A stretch of DNA of 64,000 bases from the NCBI GenBank assembly GCA_004322365.1, contig SCTS01000003.1:2709-66708 (forward strand), written 5' to 3'. A program made the position numbers and the translations under genes. This document shows, piece after piece, positions 5,952 to 39,450 of the stretch. Below the pieces are notes generated by a model. That model ran no database searches, was not told where the DNA came from, and worked only from the letters and a program-made list of their open reading frames with translations. The DNA comes from Patescibacteria group bacterium (GTDB taxonomy: Bacteria > Patescibacteriota > Minisyncoccia > Phycocordibacterales > Phycocordibacteraceae). The number at the start of each line of letters is the position of its first letter. Position 1 is the first letter of the stretch.

Positions 5952-6842
5952 GTGTATATGATACACAAAAGAAATATTGCTCTGGCAGTTGCTATTTTTA
6001 TACTCCCGTTCTTTCTTGCTCCTGTATTCACATACGCCGCTAATGATTATTCCGAACTACATCTAAATACTGACTCTGTTTTTTCAGCAAAAAATCTTTT
6101 TGTTATTCAGAGATCGGGAACAGTGATATACACCCGTGCTAGGTGGGGGCAAACATTTGTTCGCGTTACCGTGTTTACCGATAAAGGTACAGTGCTGACA
6201 AAAAAATATGGAGGTAATGCGTTACTTAGCGAAATTAAAGAAGGTGATTTGTTGAATGTTGAAGGTGTCTTGGCGGTTGGGGCTGACGAAGTGGTTGTTA
6301 CTGCAAAGAAAGTAAAAGATTTATCGCTTCAATCTGAGCCAAAAAATCTTTTAGGGACTGTGCGTAGTGTTAACGGTAATGGAAATTCATTTGTTCTTAA
6401 AAATACTACATTCGGATCCACAACAATTGCAATTTCAAGTTCTACTATCCTTAAGAAGGGTGTGCGTACCGTTCCCCTCGGAGAAGTAGTTGTTGGAGAT
6501 AAAGTGCTTAGTGCGTCTGGTGTGTATGATTATAAGACAAATATTCTCAGTGCAACGAGTACTGAATTCTACCAAGATAAAACAGTATTTAATCCGCGAA
6601 ATTTTAGTGGCACACTGAAGGAAATTTCAGGAACAACTCTACCAGCGAGCCTCACTGTTGTAGTGGGGAATACACCATATACAGTGTTTCTAACAGAAAA
6701 GACATTGCTGTTTAATAAAACAAGAAAAGCAACATCTCTGAGCCGTTTTGTTGTTGGAGATTCTGTGCGTTTCTATGGCAAGATTCGTCAAAGCAATCTT
6801 ACAGAAATTGATGCCGATGTCGCCTCTGATTTGAACTTTTGA
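5952..6842 (+). CDS. hypothetical secreted protein (signal peptide, beta-rich)
   Basis: ORF track 296 aa; cleavable-looking signal FTYAAND. Confidence 0.5.
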   Translation: MYMIHKRNIALAVAIFILPFFLAPVFTYAANDYSELHLNTDSVFSAKNLFVIQRSGTVIYTRARWGQTFVRVTVFTDKGTVLTKKYGGNALLSEIKEGDLLNVEGVLAVGADEVVVTAKKVKDLSLQSEPKNLLGTVRSVNGNGNSFVLKNTTFGSTTIAISSSTILKKGVRTVPLGEVVVGDKVLSASGVYDYKTNILSATSTEFYQDKTVFNPRNFSGTLKEISGTTLPASLTVVVGNTPYTVFLTEKTLLFNKTRKATSLSRFVVGDSVRFYGKIRQSNLTEIDADVASDLNF

Positions 6843-7663
6843 TGCATCCGATGAAGTATGTAGTCATTGAGAAGAAGGTTGGGGAAACACCTCTACAGGC
6901 ACTTGAAGCATTTCGCCAGACCGATCCTACACTTCAAGACATTCCTCTTACCTACGCTGGACGACTGGACCCTATGGCGAGCGGAAAGTTGCTCATTCTT
7001 ATAGGAGGCGAATGCAAGTATCGAGAAAAATACGATGGACTTGATAAAGAATATGAGTTTGAAATCTTACTTGGTGTAACAAGTGACACTGGGGATGTGC
7101 TTGGGATACCAAGTATGGGTGAGTCTAGATTAATTAAGGAGCACTCAGAAAATGACCTACAAAAGATCGTTTCCTCGCTTATAGGTTGGCATACGCTTCC
7201 ATACCCGCCGTTCTCTTCAAAAACTGTAGCTGGCAAACCGCTGTTTCAGTACGCACTTGAAGGTACTCTTGATTCTATAGAAATTCCTACAATTAAGACA
7301 CATGTATACACAATGGAGTATCTAGTTAAAAAAACACTTACACATAAGGAGCTTATAGAGCAGGTGCTTGGGAAAATACACCTTTTACGAGCCCCTGTAG
7401 ATTCGGGGAAAATTGGCGCTGATTTTAGAAAGGCTGAAATTATTAGGCAATGGGAGGCACTTTCTCCTCAGAGAGATCAGAAATATACAATTCTAAAGTT
7501 CAAAGCGGTGGTCTCCTCGGGTACCTATATTCGTTCACTCGCTCCTATAATTGCAGAGCATCTCGGCACTCTGGGTATGGCATATTCAATTCACCGCACG
7601 CGTATAGGAAAGTATCAGGCCCTCATAGCATCTGTTGGTTTCTGGAAGAAAACCTTTATTTGA
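6839..7663 (+). CDS. truB: tRNA pseudouridine(55) synthase TruB-family
   Basis: GRLDPMASGKLLIL catalytic Asp motif, GTYIRSLA motif; overlaps upstream stop by 4 nt. Confidence 0.75.
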   Translation: MMHPMKYVVIEKKVGETPLQALEAFRQTDPTLQDIPLTYAGRLDPMASGKLLILIGGECKYREKYDGLDKEYEFEILLGVTSDTGDVLGIPSMGESRLIKEHSENDLQKIVSSLIGWHTLPYPPFSSKTVAGKPLFQYALEGTLDSIEIPTIKTHVYTMEYLVKKTLTHKELIEQVLGKIHLLRAPVDSGKIGADFRKAEIIRQWEALSPQRDQKYTILKFKAVVSSGTYIRSLAPIIAEHLGTLGMAYSIHRTRIGKYQALIASVGFWKKTFI

Positions 7664-31077: not shown

Positions 31078-31124
31078 GGGGCTGACCTCTCTGCTCGCAA
31101 AGGGTGCATGCAAAGACTTTGCAT

Positions 31125-31155
31125 GGTACTCTCTTTCTCATCAAGGGCCGTAAAC
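31125..31155 (+). pseudogene. truncated duplicate of tRNA-Ala leader plus first 8 nt of tRNA
   Basis: tactctctttctcaNNNagggccgt occurs twice (31127-31151 and 31207-31231), each preceded by a 9-bp hairpin. Confidence 0.45.
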
Positions 31156-31224
31156 AAAGTTTTCGGCCACCCTCTTCGAAAAGATTACATACAAAGAGTT
31201 GTATGATACTCTCTTTCTCAGTGA

Positions 31225-31297
31225 GGGCCGTTAGCTCAATTGGTAGAGCGCCGCATTTGCAATGCGGAGGCAGCCGGTTCGAAACCGGCACGGTCCA
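31225..31297 (+). tRNA. tRNA-Ala (anticodon UGC)
   Basis: Cloverleaf folded by hand: acceptor GGGCCGT/ACGGTCC with G3:U70, anticodon loop tttgcaa, T-arm gccgg-ttcgaaa-ccggc; CCA not encoded. Confidence 0.85.
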
Positions 31298-31306
31298 CAA
31301 TAAAAG

Positions 31307-35439: not shown

Positions 35440-36585
35440 ATGTCACGGGTAAAAATTACGGAATATCGAGCTAAGAAACTCATTCTCGGAGATTCATATA
35501 CGGGAGTTTCTATTCACAATGGGAAAATTGTACTTCCGAAAAGTGGGCGATTTGTTGCAAAGGTTGATCAAGGTATTAAGAAGCGTTTTAAGCAGGGGCT
35601 TGTTGCCGTGGATGGTACATCCACGGCAATTTCTAAAAGTGTCTCTTTGTGGAGGAAAAAAGGTTTCTCTCATTTTCTTGTTGAGCCGTATGTACCGCAT
35701 GAGGAGTCTGAAGAGCAGTACCTTTCTTTAGAGCGGGTGCGCACGGGAATACGAATATTGCATGCATCTGCTGGCGGTATTGATATTGAAGCGCATCCCG
35801 AGCTTGTGAAAACATATCTCATAAATCCAGCACTACCATATACGATAGTGCCGGGCATCCCAGAAAAATTCTTGAAACATCTTGTGGAGGTGTTTGAGAA
35901 GAACTTTTTCTCGTTTCTTGAAATTAATCCACTCGTTGTTCGGGGAGACGAAGTATATATCCTCGATGCAGCGGTGCTCGTCGACAGCGCGGGAATATTT
36001 TTCGTCAAAAATGGATGGAGTGAAGACGATATTGTTGAGGGAAAGGCACGACATATTGCTGAAGAAAAAGTGCAGGCACTTCAAAAAACTACCCCTGCCT
36101 CTTTGAAACTCACCATTTTGCACCCTGATGGAGGTTTGTTTTTTCTGCTTTCAGGTGGTGGTGGAAGTATTGTTATTGCGGATGAGGCAGAACTTAATGG
36201 TGTGGGTCGCTCCATTGGCAATTATGGAGAATATAGCGGTGGTCCAACTCGGGAAGAAACACATCTCTACGCACGAGAGGTGATCCAGCTATTACTTAAT
36301 TCACCTGCAAAGAAGAAAGCCCTCGTGATTGCTGGAGGTATTGCAAATTTTACCGATATTAAATCAACTTTTAGAGGTGTCGTTGATGCCTTGTCAGAGT
36401 ACACGGGCACTCTCCGGAGAAAAGGTGTAAAAGTATTTGTGCGTCGTGGTGGGCCACATGAAAAGGAGGGACTTTTGTATATGGAGGAGTATTTAAAAAA
36501 GGAAAAATTATTTGGTTCAGTGTATGGCTCTGAGGCAGTGATTACGAGTGCAGTGGACGATGCGATAGCATTTATAAAAAAATGA
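35440..36585 (+). CDS. ATP-citrate lyase small (ATP-grasp, AclB-like) subunit
   Basis: Recalled blocks match eukaryotic/bacterial ACL N-terminal half: FLVEPYVPH, FLEINPLVV, LKLTILHPDGG..LSGGGGS, NYGEYSGGP, AGGIANFTD, FVRRGGP. Confidence 0.75.
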   Translation: MSRVKITEYRAKKLILGDSYTGVSIHNGKIVLPKSGRFVAKVDQGIKKRFKQGLVAVDGTSTAISKSVSLWRKKGFSHFLVEPYVPHEESEEQYLSLERVRTGIRILHASAGGIDIEAHPELVKTYLINPALPYTIVPGIPEKFLKHLVEVFEKNFFSFLEINPLVVRGDEVYILDAAVLVDSAGIFFVKNGWSEDDIVEGKARHIAEEKVQALQKTTPASLKLTILHPDGGLFFLLSGGGGSIVIADEAELNGVGRSIGNYGEYSGGPTREETHLYAREVIQLLLNSPAKKKALVIAGGIANFTDIKSTFRGVVDALSEYTGTLRRKGVKVFVRRGGPHEKEGLLYMEEYLKKEKLFGSVYGSEAVITSAVDDAIAFIKK

Positions 36586-38387
36586 ACATACTTGAATTAA
36601 CACGGAAAGGAAGAACAAAGGTTCTCGTCATAGGGAATCATTCAGGCATTATTCAGTCGATGCTTGATTTTGATTTTCTTTCAGGTAAAGACATTCCTTC
36701 TGTGCTGGGGATAGTTGCAGGGAATCGCAAAGCAGAAAAATATTTTTTTGGCACTAAAGAAATTTTGTTGCCATGTTATAAAAACATTCAAATTGCTTCG
36801 GAAGTCCTAGGTTCAAAAGTCGATTGGATGCTTAATCTTCAGTCAGGACGGCGTACATTTGAATCAACGGTTTCCTTTTTTGATTTTTTCCCAAAATCAC
36901 TTGGGGCACACATATTTGCAGAAAATGTTCCAGAAAGTCATGCAACTGAGCTCATCTCTCGTTTTGGTAAAAAATATTTCATTGTGGGGCCTTCAGGAGT
37001 TGGGTTGTTGGTGCCGAACGCATTAAAGCTTGGTGCCATTGGTGGTGTTGATGCGGTGCAAATTAAATCTGGAGCACTGACAAGTGCTGGAAATATTGCG
37101 GTTGGTTCAACCTCTGGAGGGATGACTAATGAGTTGATTCATGCAGTTGCGCGTGCTGGGAAAAGGCTCTCGTTTGCCATAGCTATTGGTGGGGATAGAT
37201 TTCCCGTTGTTTCTTTAACGCAAATATTTGCACTCGCTGAAGCAGATTCTCAAACAGAAGGATTTGTATATTTTGGAGAGCTTGGCGGTGTAGATGAATA
37301 TGAAATTATTGAGCTCATTAAGGCAAAAAAGTTTACCAAACCCCTCGTTGCCTACATTGCAGGAATCATAGATGAAGCATTTGATGAACATGTGCAATTT
37401 GGGCATGCAAAAGCACTCGTTCAGACAATGGACGAAAGCGCTCGTGCAAAGCGTGAGGCACTTCGCAGTGTTGGTGTTATTGCTCCTGATACATTTCCTC
37501 AGTTTCTTGATGCGCTTCAAAAACTTCCCGGAGGCGCGTATACTGCTGAGGAAATGGACATTCAACCGCTCCAAGGGCGCCAGAAAAGCATTCTTTCAAC
37601 GAGAAAGGTTTTGGATATAGATGAGGGTCGTGTTTTTGTAAAAGGAAAAAAGCTTTTGAAAGGCAAAGAAAATGCGTTTGTTGACGCTACCTTGGGGGCT
37701 CTTCTAGGGAAACCAGTACGCTCTCCAGTAACACGAGCTTTTACCGAAGCCGTTTTTGAAATGCTCATAGACCATGGAGGAAATGTATCAGGAGCAGTGA
37801 ACACTATGATTACTGCCCGTGCAGGGAAAGATCTTGTTTCGTCTTTAGCCTCAGGTCTTCTCACAGTGGGCCCTCGTTTTGGTGGAGCAATAAACGAAGC
37901 AGCTCGTTTGTGGATTCTAGGTGTGGTGTCGCAAAAAACAGGTTTGGGGTTTGTAGCTGAAAAAGCAAAAGCAGGAGAGCTGATTTTAGGTATTGGGCAT
38001 AAGAAATACCGCGTTGGGTTGGCAGATCCTCGAGTGAAAGCTCTTGCTGAATTCGCAACGCTTCTTAAAAAGCATCCGCATTATGATTTTGCACGGAGTG
38101 TTGAGAAAGCAACAACTTCAAAAAATGGAAAATTGATTTTAAACATTGACGGCGCTATTGCGGCATTACTTCTGGATATTTTGAGTGAGTGCGAAGGAAT
38201 GAGCGAGCGGGAACTCCAAGAGCTTGCTGACGCAGAATTCTTTAATGCATTTTTTGTTATCCCTCGTTCCGTTGGTTTCATTGCACATTTCATGGAACAA
38301 AAGAAAAACGATGAAGGTTTGTTCCGTCTCCCCGATGAACTACTGTTTGTGAGAGAAGAGACTCCAAAGAAAAATAAGAAGAAATAA
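36582..38387 (+). CDS. ATP-citrate lyase large (CoA-binding/phospho-His + citrate-synthase-like, AclA-like) subunit
   Basis: SucD-like N-half with QFGHAKA phospho-His loop; C-terminal GIGHKKYRVGLADPR matches citrate-synthase/citryl-CoA-lyase G-x-GH-x-x-Y-x-x-x-DPR; ATGA overlap with upstream gene. Confidence 0.75.
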   Translation: MNILELTRKGRTKVLVIGNHSGIIQSMLDFDFLSGKDIPSVLGIVAGNRKAEKYFFGTKEILLPCYKNIQIASEVLGSKVDWMLNLQSGRRTFESTVSFFDFFPKSLGAHIFAENVPESHATELISRFGKKYFIVGPSGVGLLVPNALKLGAIGGVDAVQIKSGALTSAGNIAVGSTSGGMTNELIHAVARAGKRLSFAIAIGGDRFPVVSLTQIFALAEADSQTEGFVYFGELGGVDEYEIIELIKAKKFTKPLVAYIAGIIDEAFDEHVQFGHAKALVQTMDESARAKREALRSVGVIAPDTFPQFLDALQKLPGGAYTAEEMDIQPLQGRQKSILSTRKVLDIDEGRVFVKGKKLLKGKENAFVDATLGALLGKPVRSPVTRAFTEAVFEMLIDHGGNVSGAVNTMITARAGKDLVSSLASGLLTVGPRFGGAINEAARLWILGVVSQKTGLGFVAEKAKAGELILGIGHKKYRVGLADPRVKALAEFATLLKKHPHYDFARSVEKATTSKNGKLILNIDGAIAALLLDILSECEGMSERELQELADAEFFNAFFVIPRSVGFIAHFMEQKKNDEGLFRLPDELLFVREETPKKNKKK

Positions 38388-38437: not shown

Positions 38438-38510
38438 GGGCGGTTAGCTCAGTTGGTAGAGCGTTCCCTTCACACGGGAGAGGTCACAGGTTCGAATCCT
38501 GTATCGCCCA
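38438..38510 (+). tRNA. tRNA-Val (anticodon CAC)
   Basis: Acceptor GGGCGGT/ATCGCCC, D-arm gctc-agttggta-gagc, anticodon loop ttcacac, T-arm acagg-ttcgaat-cctgt. Confidence 0.85.
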
Positions 38511-38615
38511 CACATAATTTATTATGTGTGGCAGGATGAGAATGCCGGAGCGATGTTTTTAGTTTCGAAAAACCGTGAGGCGGGGTTGCGACCAAAGCGA
38601 GCGACGACGAGCTTT

Positions 38616-38646
38616 GAGTTGTGACCGAATCCTGTATCGCCCACCA
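38616..38646 (+). pseudogene. degenerate copy of tRNA-Val 3' half (T-arm remnant + acceptor 3' strand + CCA)
   Basis: gaatcctgtatcgccca repeats the tRNA-Val 3' end 115 nt downstream in direct orientation. Confidence 0.55.
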
Positions 38647-38678
38647 GTTCTTTTAAATTCTAATTTTCTTCCTCATTT

Positions 38679-38752
38679 CGGGGCGGAGTATGCCGGTAGT
38701 ACATACGATTCGGGTTCGTATAGACCGAGTTCGATTCTCGGCGCCCCGACCA
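38679..38752 (+). tRNA. tRNA-Pro (anticodon CGG), C1:G72, CCA encoded
   Basis: Acceptor CGGGGCG/CGCCCCG, 3-bp D-stem, anticodon stem tacga/tcgta with loop ttcgggt, T-arm ccgag-ttcgatt-ctcgg, ACCA tail. Confidence 0.7.
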
Positions 38753-38779
38753 TAGAGGTAAAACATATTTTTTATTCAT

Positions 38780-38850
38780 GGGCCTATAGTCAAGTGGTAC
38801 GATGCTACATTCGCATTGTAGAGGCGCGAGTTCGATTCTCGCTAGGTCCA
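38780..38850 (+). tRNA. tRNA-Ala (anticodon CGC)
   Basis: Acceptor GGGCCTA/TAGGTCC with G3:U70, anticodon stem ctaca/tgtag loop ttcgcat, T-arm gcgag-ttcgatt-ctcgc. Confidence 0.8.
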
Positions 38851-39004
38851 CAGAAATAATGCGCAAAGCGCATATATTTCGTAGGATGTCGCATCCCTGA
38901 TGCGACGCCACAAAGTTATCATTTGTGCTCCAGGGAGCAGGGCTCGCAGGAACTCTTTCAAAAAGAATAGTGACCTGAGGTCCAATTCTCTTTCTCGCAC
39001 ACTC

Positions 39005-39076
39005 GCTTTCATCGTTCAATGGATAGGACATCTCCCTCCGAAGGAGAAAATCCAGGTTCGACTCCTGGTGAGAGCA
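39005..39076 (+). tRNA. tRNA-Arg (anticodon CCG)
   Basis: Acceptor GCTTTCA/TGAGAGC (two G:U), D-arm gttc-aatggata-ggac, anticodon stem tctcc/ggaga loop ctccgaa, T-arm ccagg-ttcgact-cctgg. Confidence 0.6.
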
Positions 39077-39122
39077 CAAACAAAAACTAACCGCGCAAGC
39101 GATTATTTTTGTTTGTGCTCTC
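39070..39122. repeat. 17-bp perfect inverted repeat hairpin (gagagcacaaacaaaaa / tttttgtttgtgctctc, 19-nt loop) overlapping the tRNA-Arg acceptor 3' strand
   Basis: Exact reverse-complement arms read from sequence; followed by a 7-bp hairpin (ggatgtc-tggga-gacatcc) at 39124-39141 and a hairpin+T6 at ~39143-39176. Confidence 0.7.
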
Positions 39123-39322
39123 GAGGATGTCTGGGAGACATCCGTGCAGGAATCGAATACCTTGCGAGCATTTTTTCTGAACTTCCGAAAAAACCACGTA
39201 CTCCAAGAGTCATTCTGCTGAATGAGGTGTACAGCTCCTGTAAAGGGACTTTTCAGAAACTGCGTTCGGACGAAATGAAAACTGCGTTTTCGTTTCGCTC
39301 CTCGCTTGTTTCTGTAAGGAGA

Positions 39323-39340
39323 GACTCCTGGTGAGAGCAC
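39323..39340 (+). repeat. direct repeat of tRNA-Arg 3' end (gactcctggtgagagcac) 250 nt downstream of the tRNA
   Basis: 18-nt exact copy of 39059-39076. Confidence 0.6.
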
Positions 39341-39408
39341 TCTTCAACTCCTTTCGTTCGCTCAGTGCAACAACTTACAGCGATTATTTTTCTAAGCACT
39401 ACAAAAAG

Positions 39409-39450
39409 CCTGTATAGTATAAATTAACGACCGTTAACTTATACTATACC
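39409..39450. repeat. palindromic element copy A (cctgtatagtataaattaacga-ccgttaacttatactatacc)
   Basis: Near-perfect 42-bp palindrome; same family as 54794-54839 and 55204-55245. Confidence 0.7.

Follow-up and report, generated by a model that had tools for sequence, protein, structure and literature searches.

The window analyzed in this study is a stretch of 64,000 nucleotides (nt) of contig SCTS01000003.1 from a Patescibacteria group bacterium (Paceibacterota). ARAGORN predicts five tRNA genes in it, four of which are located inside 640 nt on the plus strand: tRNA-Val (CAC) at 38438..38511, tRNA-Pro (CGG) at 38679..38752, tRNA-Ala (CGC) at 38780..38851 and tRNA-Arg (CCG) at 39005..39077. 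The Rfam tRNA model (RF00005) returns the same four genes at its gathering score with 46.6-69.2 bits, tRNA-Val being the highest (69.2 bits). This tRNA island is preceded at its 5' side by the genes for both subunits of an ATP-citrate-lyase-like enzyme (ACL) and followed at its 3' side by a NUDIX gene. An earlier inspection of the letters alone (the sequence-only reading) had proposed these four tRNAs, and both predictors agree with it. Behind tRNA-Val-CAC and tRNA-Arg-CCG, which score 61-69 bits in the Rfam model, lie short inserts that end in a copy of the 3' end of the preceding tRNA. These inserts, candidate members of a family of miniature elements, are the subject of this report.

The direct copies behind the two tRNAs are exact. 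A repeat of 19 nt, CGAATCCTGTATCGCCCAC, is found by the repeat finder as the last 19 nt of tRNA-Val (C56 to C74; 38493-38511, plus strand) and again at 38626-38644, where the CA after the second copy gives a CCA at 38644-38646. For tRNA-Arg, a repeat of 18 nt, GACTCCTGGTGAGAGCAC, comprises the last 18 nt of the tRNA (39060-39077, plus strand) and a second copy at 39323-39340. The copies are offset by 133 nt (Val) and 263 nt (Arg), leaving gaps of 114 and 245 nt between them; the sequence-only reading had seen both pairs, and its values (a 17-mer 115 nt and an 18-mer 250 nt downstream) were right for the Arg length and close for the rest. Each repeat is present exactly twice in the window, even with two mismatches allowed, and the number of matches expected from dinucleotide-preserving shuffles is 0.00 and 0.01, respectively. 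A third repeat behind tRNA-Ala-CGC was rejected since just 5-7 nt match (CCACA), as was a ggtcca match at 38975-38984, which falls in a conserved promoter-like region of tRNA-Arg.

The spacers between the tRNAs of the island differ sharply among near-identical strains. The large ACL subunit has relatives with 96-97% identity in three Paceibacterota/Parcubacteria metagenome-assembled genomes (MAGs; loci L001-L003), more distant ones in L032 (90%), L004 (80%) and L005 (78%), and many others in Patescibacteria (62-69%). The tRNA-Pro site is empty in the window and in L032, where CCAtagagg lies directly behind the tRNA, and filled in L003, L001 and L077, where a 153-158-nt insert (type A, see below) and a 19-nt copy of the tRNA-Pro 3' end precede the same trailer. 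Conversely, the tRNA-Val site is empty in L004 and L005 (aagtcctt directly behind the tRNA) and filled in the window, L001 and L032 with an insert of 133-174 nt plus the repeat, before the homologous trailer aagttctt. L003, which also carries a truncated Val element, has its tRNA-Arg 3' end joined straight to the sequence that, in the window, serves as trailer behind the distal repeat. In L002, tRNA-Arg is followed by two dissimilar inserts arranged in tandem, both of which terminate in a copy of its 3' end. The comparison with related genomes proposed in the sequence-only reading hence finds the Val and Arg inserts variable between strains. It also bears out the suspected footprint of an attachment (att) site, since in close relatives the corresponding tRNA lacks the insert and is immediately followed by its native trailer. 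The repeats do not behave as conserved parts of a longer RNA gene, given that the inserts are variable and match no Rfam family. In the window, the second copies mark the right-hand junctions of two elements, one of type A with 133 nt (Val) and one of type C with 263 nt (Arg).

A census was made over about 50 loci around one gene and two metagenome contigs. When all tRNAs of the loci were scanned, about 16 of the ~48 non-redundant tRNA genes had a copy of their last 14 nt within 331 nt downstream, and none had one beyond that distance. Profile searches and sequence reading added inserts behind tRNA-Ala-CGC (L005), tRNA-Tyr-GTA and tRNA-Trp-CCA (L075), tRNA-Pro and tRNA-Arg (L077) and tRNA-Ala-GGC (L032, L038). 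About 20 inserts were found overall, behind roughly one third of the tRNA genes examined. Seven tRNA species are occupied (Val-CAC, Pro-CGG, Arg-CCG, Ala-CGC, Ala-GGC, Tyr-GTA and Trp-CCA). The common C34 of the island tRNAs, to which attention had been drawn, is incidental, since inserts are also found behind tRNA-Ala-GGC, Tyr-GTA and Trp-CCA.

The inserts are 133-263 nt long, with sizes clustering at 133-204 nt, and no open reading frame (ORF) is found inside them. They fall into three mutually unrelated core types: type A, which includes the Val element of the window; type B, with a core of the form GTAGATTTCGAGCGTAAGAC..CCCTTTGAGGGT.AAACGCGAGAGG; and type C, which includes the Arg element of the window and has an ACCTTG..CAAGGT stem and GCTCCTGTAAGGAGA at its end. 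Each core type occurs behind several different tRNAs, and across tRNAs and genomes the inserts can be aligned over their full length with an identical order of modules. The sequence-only reading had interpreted the copies as leftovers of decayed integration events or as products of an unusual tandem duplication. The recurrence of homologous compact units with a shared architecture at other tRNAs and in other genomes speaks against both the former and a simple form of the latter. In type A, CGGAG-nn-ATG resembles a Shine-Dalgarno sequence with a start codon; a small encoded peptide was rejected by eye, as the ORFs have only 5-25 codons and are unconserved.

All inserts follow one plan. From the tRNA onward, it comprises a hairpin (H1), an inverted tRNA 3' segment, a hairpin-rich core, the direct tRNA copy and the native trailer. 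H1 often resembles an intrinsic terminator (A-tract, GC stem, T-tract) and in many cases its 3' arm is long enough to pair with the final 4-10 nt of the tRNA as well. The direct copy always ends at C74 and always starts in the T-loop, at TT/CGA (C56; the slash marks the edge) or, in type C, at C/GA (G57); the right-end junctions read GAGAGG/CGA, GTGAC/CGA and GGAGA/GA. All elements lie in the sense of the tRNA, which stays intact, with the element supplying or duplicating its 3' end.

A repeat that spans the tRNA from T-loop to 3' end and a native trailer that comes behind the distal copy make up the classical att arrangement. This geometry would also be expected if the inserts were independent relics of large integrase-bearing prophages or islands that had lost their interior, leaving attL and attR close together, and partial tRNA copies derived from elements of 9-121 kb are common (PMC9897764). 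Independent deletions should nevertheless leave varied junctions and gene fragments, whereas the inserts align end to end, contain no ORF remnants and cluster in size. Neither a large element bounded by tRNA repeats nor an integrase was found in the about 50 loci. A phmmer search with the E. coli XerD sequence yielded no credible XerD-like ORF among 1608 ORFs of the window and these loci, and two ORFs flagged by a tyrosine-recombinase motif expression were assigned by Pfam to an FTR1 permease and a TGT enzyme. Of the 53 ORFs of the window, the 20 that flank the island, were flagged by motif or had an unclear function gave only housekeeping genes in Pfam, in agreement with the earlier remark that no integrase lies nearby. 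The type A, B and C core patterns had no copy in 2.9 million viral contigs, where they returned nothing or chance matches in unrelated coding DNA. A pattern scan of metagenomes with the type B block gave two contigs, one of them the L002 contig, the pattern being too strict. An autonomous element with the same att site and an integrase was found neither in the loci nor in the viral contigs, nor by this too strict metagenome pattern. We consider an origin as relics of large elements very unlikely.

The inserts turn over rapidly. Although the aclA genes of L001 and L003 are 97.2% identical in nucleotide sequence, their tRNA-Pro inserts share just 72%. The L001 insert has a nearer counterpart (77%) in L077, a locus with an AclA 81% identical to that of the window, and the L003 insert is equally close to the Arg2 insert of L002. 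Between the window and L001, the Val elements are 93% identical and the aclA genes 89.9%, consistent with inheritance of this copy by vertical descent. Gain, loss and replacement of elements between strains are shown by these comparisons to outpace the divergence of the host genes.

One family member carries cargo. It is located behind tRNA-Tyr in L075 (3286-6261, minus strand). There, tRNA-Tyr precedes a type B mini-element and a diverged Tyr repeat, after which a second hairpin and a Tyr-specific antisense segment X (TGGATTCGAA) are found. X is followed by genes for a CsoR-like metal repressor (csoR) and a P-type ATPase and by a membrane-like ORF of 72 amino acids (aa). The right end is formed by 84 nt of the type B right core (nhmmer E-value 3e-17) and a 13-nt Tyr repeat. 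The member measures about 2.9 kb, with 2.7 kb of accessory genes and no recombinase between the same ends; the same two ends can thus enclose accessory genes. Taken over all loci, the comparisons show insertions at a fixed position of the tRNA gene that vary between strains, stack in tandem, are modular and can carry cargo.

The Val element of the window (38512..38644, plus strand, 133 nt including the right-hand repeat) is homologous to the inserts behind tRNA-Pro, tRNA-Arg and tRNA-Ala-GGC. Its hairpin H1 (38508..38531, plus strand; CCACACATAAT / ATTATGTGTGG) is an 11-nt inverted repeat with 100% complementarity, the 5' arm of which begins within the tRNA 3' end. A degenerate inverted copy of the tRNA-Val 3' segment was recognized by sequence reading at 38526..38542 (plus strand) as GTGTGGC plus AGGATGAGAA (ideally GTGGGC..AGGATTCGAA), and its longest exact antisense match to the tRNA is 6 nt. 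The type A core (38546..38625, plus strand) was delimited in alignments and comprises CGGAG-nnATG, hairpin H3, the CGAGGCGGGG hairpin, hairpin H5 and TGTGAC; its stems show compensatory changes. The right-hand copy of C56-C74 (38626..38644, plus strand) is followed by the native trailer CAgttcttttaaa, which is homologous to the one directly behind tRNA-Val in L004.

The Arg element (39078..39340, plus strand, 263 nt including the right-hand repeat) is homologous to L077 8798-8962 (tRNA-Arg) and L075 2360-2205 (tRNA-Trp). An inverted repeat with perfect arms of 17 nt forms its H1 (39070..39122, plus strand), with the final 8 nt of the tRNA contributing to the 5' arm. Hairpin H2 (39125..39143, plus strand; GGATGTCT-GGGA-GACATCC), identified by sequence reading and also present in L077, splits the inverted tRNA copy. 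Segment X (39147..39157, plus strand; CAGGAATCGAA) is antisense to the 3' half of the T-arm of tRNA-Arg with one mismatch. The type C core (39158..39322, plus strand), defined by comparison with L077 and L075, contains the ACCTTG..CAAGGT stem, internal hairpins and GCTCCTGTAAGGAGA; it is longer than in these relatives and has an internal repeat. The right-hand copy of G57-C74 (39323..39340, plus strand) precedes the native trailer of tRNA-Arg-CCG (39341..39375, plus strand; tcttcaactcc...gcaacaac), which is kept behind the last repeat in L002, L003 and L005.

Two resemblances were noted in this region. The native trailer of tRNA-Arg has the appearance of an aged and degenerated copy of its 3' end (TTCGACTCC...GAGCAAGCAC), suggesting that insertion had already taken place here before. 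In type C, the right end (window 39316-39332) resembles the anticodon stem of tRNA-Arg (39041-39057), and this Arg-like end is retained behind tRNA-Trp in L075 (about 2225-2205), a hint that type C may have arisen at tRNA-Arg and changed its target later.

A short module lies behind tRNA-Ala-CGC (38852..38915, plus strand). It consists of a terminator-like hairpin (38859-38873) returned by a terminator scan, AGGATG, hairpin H2 (38888-38906) and CCACA, which repeats the end of the tRNA, and has neither a long repeat nor a core. Sequences homologous to the module are present at L001 6443-6509 and in the H2 part of the Arg element. In L004 and L077, type A cores are located behind tRNA-Ala with just a 7-nt CCACAAA repeat.

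The inverted tRNA segment follows the identity of the tRNA in front of it. In some elements, it is interrupted by the small hairpin H2. Over six copies of types A and B, the nine base pairs of this hairpin are all intact (100% paired), and compensatory changes are seen in seven. X, the antisense portion that is preserved best, is the reverse complement of GGTTCGAnTCCnn in the cognate tRNA, as exemplified by CAGGAATCGAACC (Arg), TACAGGATTCGAACC (Val), GCGGAGTCGAACCGC (Ala-CGC), TGGATTCGAACC (Tyr) and ACAAGGATTCGAA (Trp). Measured by its longest match, the antisense segment fits the cognate tRNA over 10-15 nt in every element of type B, over 12-13 nt in two of the three belonging to type C and over 11-13 nt in three belonging to type A, compared to an average of 2-8 nt for non-cognate tRNAs. 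The Arg element of the window has GTGCTCTC (8 nt, exact) and the 11-nt X CAGGAaTCGAA with one mismatch. When the last 23 nt of the tRNA were folded together with the start of the element, 13-21 of these 23 nt were predicted to pair with the antisense segment in 13 out of 15 cases (15 nt for Val and 13 nt for Arg in the window). Elements fold better than shuffled sequences (z about -4). Raw folding energies favor the tRNA-sense strand in 16 out of 17 elements; a strand preference was dropped, since strand-matched shuffles give z-scores of -3.9 versus -3.6.

Such folding, together with the covariation of the hairpins, the terminator-like H1 of many copies and the invariable tRNA sense, is also what one would expect from structured 3' trailers that are useful to the host, for instance in termination, in 3' processing or as a tRNA-like RNA cut by RNase P or RNase Z, and that spread by ordinary recombination. 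The inverted and direct copies could even form an acceptor/T-like helix ending in ACC(A). The acceptor complement of this mimic is unconserved, e.g., in the Ala insert of L005 (L005_Ala), and a tRNA-like RNA of this kind was rejected. The same tRNA works in sister strains without the module, three unrelated cores occupy the same position, folding shows no strand preference and a cargo-carrying version exists. In Rfam 15, searched at the gathering score and with E-values up to 10 over the island and L002, only the tRNAs are recovered, all other hits being far below the gathering score, and no ribozyme, intron, tmRNA or riboswitch is matched. A role as host trailers thus appears unlikely to us.

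The direct-inverted-direct layout is, in addition, that of a template-switching product. Replication and repair alone might have generated the inserts, by template switching at the terminator hairpin (giving the inverted copy), pasting of cores from other loci through T-loop microhomology and gene conversion that maintains the match between copies, with no dedicated enzyme. The junctions lie in GGTTCGAnTCC, a near-universal and quasi-palindromic sequence, tRNA genes also show partial duplications at their 5' side, and the island is rich in deletions and mosaic modules (L002 without Pro and Ala; L003 with a truncated Arg and a truncated Val element). For such by-products, the boundaries are too regular, running from C56/G57 to C74 in seven tRNA species and several lineages, and the conserved right-end cores and the cargo member argue for cis-acting ends under selection. 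We regard this as a highly improbable sole source, while template switching and T-arm microhomology could be a contributor.

We favor the explanation that the inserts are miniature, non-coding, integrase-less elements of Patescibacteria that are specific for tRNA 3' ends and are moved in trans by site-specific recombination in the T-loop, which is probably correct. Movement would proceed with a crossover at the T-loop, as for tRNA-integrating islands, and the recombinase would be supplied by the host or a helper. The mini-elements would correspond to two ends joined without cargo, essentially bare att regions. If an element were circular, its repeat, H1 and antisense segment would become contiguous and could form one hairpin, the stem of which would copy the duplex tRNA gene from the T-loop to beyond its 3' end. 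A folded hairpin mimicking the duplex target would account for the match between inverted copy and target tRNA, for the lack of an encoded integrase and for the accumulation of arrays. A more specific variant may be considered, in which a folded-hairpin att site (tRNA 3' copy, loop, inverted copy) imitates the double-stranded T-arm and 3' end of its target tRNA gene and is inserted by a host recombinase, as CTX-phi is with XerCD. The elements would then form a new class without a recombinase, retargeted by a swap of the tRNA-derived hairpin module. We put this variant forward as a tentative possibility that is rather doubtful at present.

Several points weigh against the favored explanation of in-trans movement. 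No recombinase, helper element or circular form was found, leaving the enzymology as pure inference, and the census covers about 50 loci around one gene and two metagenome contigs. A length of 130-260 bp is very small for an insert that is excised and integrated as double-stranded DNA, and the repeats could represent a long target duplication instead of an element-borne att core, two options between which the data do not decide. In the Val element of the window (CAGGAT.., 6 nt) and in the Pro elements, the inverted copy is degenerate, implying that it is either not strictly required or decays after insertion. Finally, composition-controlled folding is equally non-random on both strands, which supports no particular single strand.

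The tRNA island itself is an old syntenic feature instead of an imported island, as the Val-CAC/Pro-CGG/Ala-CGC/Arg-CCG cluster adjoins aclBA in L001, L032, L004, L005, L077 and L038, with varying order and orientation. The two-subunit ACL-like enzyme (window 35440-38387) is encoded in a Patescibacteria genome and has 1737 homologues with an E-value of at most 1e-100, of which the listed ones with a source name are nearly all Patescibacteria MAGs. The tRNA content differs in L002 (5857-6500) and L003 (5857-6440) despite an AclA protein with 96% identity: L002 is devoid of tRNA-Pro-CGG and tRNA-Ala-CGC and has a very different tRNA-Arg-CCG allele, and L003 keeps only the 3' half of tRNA-Arg-CCG. 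The C34 isoacceptors of the island seem dispensable. Four Logan contigs with the same aclA (L079, L080, L081 and L082) stop inside or just after the first tRNA of the island, which is consistent with repeats or strain heterogeneity breaking the assembly. Of the further contigs reached through exact-protein matches, most likewise stop at the island.

Duplications are also found at the 5' side of tRNA genes. tRNA-Ala-TGC (window 31225-31298) is preceded by a 33-nt direct repeat (85%) at 31119-31231, which holds the promoter-like TACTCTCTTTCTC, then 5 nt, and the initial 7 nt of the tRNA. Comparable 5' modules precede tRNA-Pro and tRNA-Arg in L002, L004 and L032; they combine a copied 5' acceptor strand of the tRNA with a small hairpin, TTCGAAAAGAAT, a second hairpin and ATTCTCTTTCTC. 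Together with the 3' inserts, they indicate that the tRNA genes of this lineage have partial duplications on both sides. Upstream of the NUDIX gene, a near-perfect palindrome of 38 nt (GTATAGTATAAATTAACG / CGTTAACTTATACTATAC; window 39412-39449) is kept in L001 and L032. In L003, two copies of this palindrome (about 6482-6520 and 6953-6990) flank an extra 450 nt with a 103-aa ORF that has no Pfam match, possibly another small mobile unit.

Patescibacteria, or candidate phyla radiation (CPR) bacteria, have tiny genomes and their gene exchange is little understood; they are thought to be poor in mobile elements. The inserts, with their fast turnover and their cargo (one copper-type efflux cassette), point to an unrecognized route of genome plasticity in CPR. 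If the folded-att variant were true, it would provide CPR with a programmable, cassette-like way of acquiring genes at tRNA genes. From a practical viewpoint, the partial tRNA copies can confuse annotation and the inserts may break assemblies.

Among known systems, the inserts share several features with the prophages, integrative and conjugative elements and islands that use a tyrosine integrase to enter tRNA genes. Both are inserted 3' of an intact tRNA with a repeat from the T-loop to the 3' end and the trailer after the distal copy, and both show tandem accretion and presence or absence between strains. Integrases that target the T-loop sublocation of tRNA genes, with the same crossover geometry, were reportedly described by Williams in 2002. 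In contrast to tRNA-integrating elements of 9-120 kb, the inserts span 133-263 bp and contain neither an integrase nor other genes, at least seven tRNAs are used by a single family, and an inverted copy of the target lies beside the junction. This target-matched inverted repeat is absent from the textbook picture of tRNA att sites and gives an idea of how one family can use many tRNA genes. A keyword search of the literature returned only the classical large tRNA-integrating elements, which is no proof of novelty.

Like miniature inverted-repeat transposable elements (MITEs) and repetitive extragenic palindromic sequences or bacterial interspersed mosaic elements (REP/BIME), the inserts are short, non-coding, hairpin-rich, multi-copy and intergenic. 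MITEs have terminal inverted repeats and a target duplication of 2-10 bp, whereas the inverted segment described here is internal and pairs with tRNA-derived sequence; the flanking repeat of 18-20 bp is tRNA sequence, and the strict orientation toward the tRNA 3' end distinguishes the inserts from MITEs and REP/BIME alike. Neither palindrome-associated transposable elements of the IS200/IS605 type, IS110 bridge-RNA mini-elements, group II introns nor retroelements fit an 18-20-nt tRNA repeat on an ORF-less unit of 130 nt. Integron cassettes with their attC sites are likewise small promoterless units with a structured, imperfectly palindromic site that form arrays with or without cargo. The inserts differ from them by the lack of GTTRRRY / RYYYAAC core sites, of attI and of a nearby IntI, and by their insertion at a tRNA gene.

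CTX-phi, an integrative mobile element exploiting Xer (IMEX), has a folded single-stranded attP and uses the host XerCD at dif. Like IMEX, the inserts have no recombinase of their own and possess two inverted target-like sites with a short loop between them that are predicted to anneal into a mimic of the target duplex, and their integration would be irreversible, leading to arrays. Unlike IMEX, their target is the T-arm and 3' end of a tRNA gene and not dif, and they have no function in replication or packaging. Cis-mobilizable elements and the cargo-only satellites of tycheposons (10.1101/2020.12.28.424599) are similarly flanked by att sites, lack a recombination module, are presumed to move in trans and form arrays at tRNA genes. 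The inserts are far smaller than these, have a conserved hairpin architecture and target-matched inverted repeats that are undescribed there, and are without an autonomous partner in our searches. The use of a tRNA gene as att site is thus a known theme, while the miniature, integrase-less form and the target-matched inverted repeat of these inserts are unusual.

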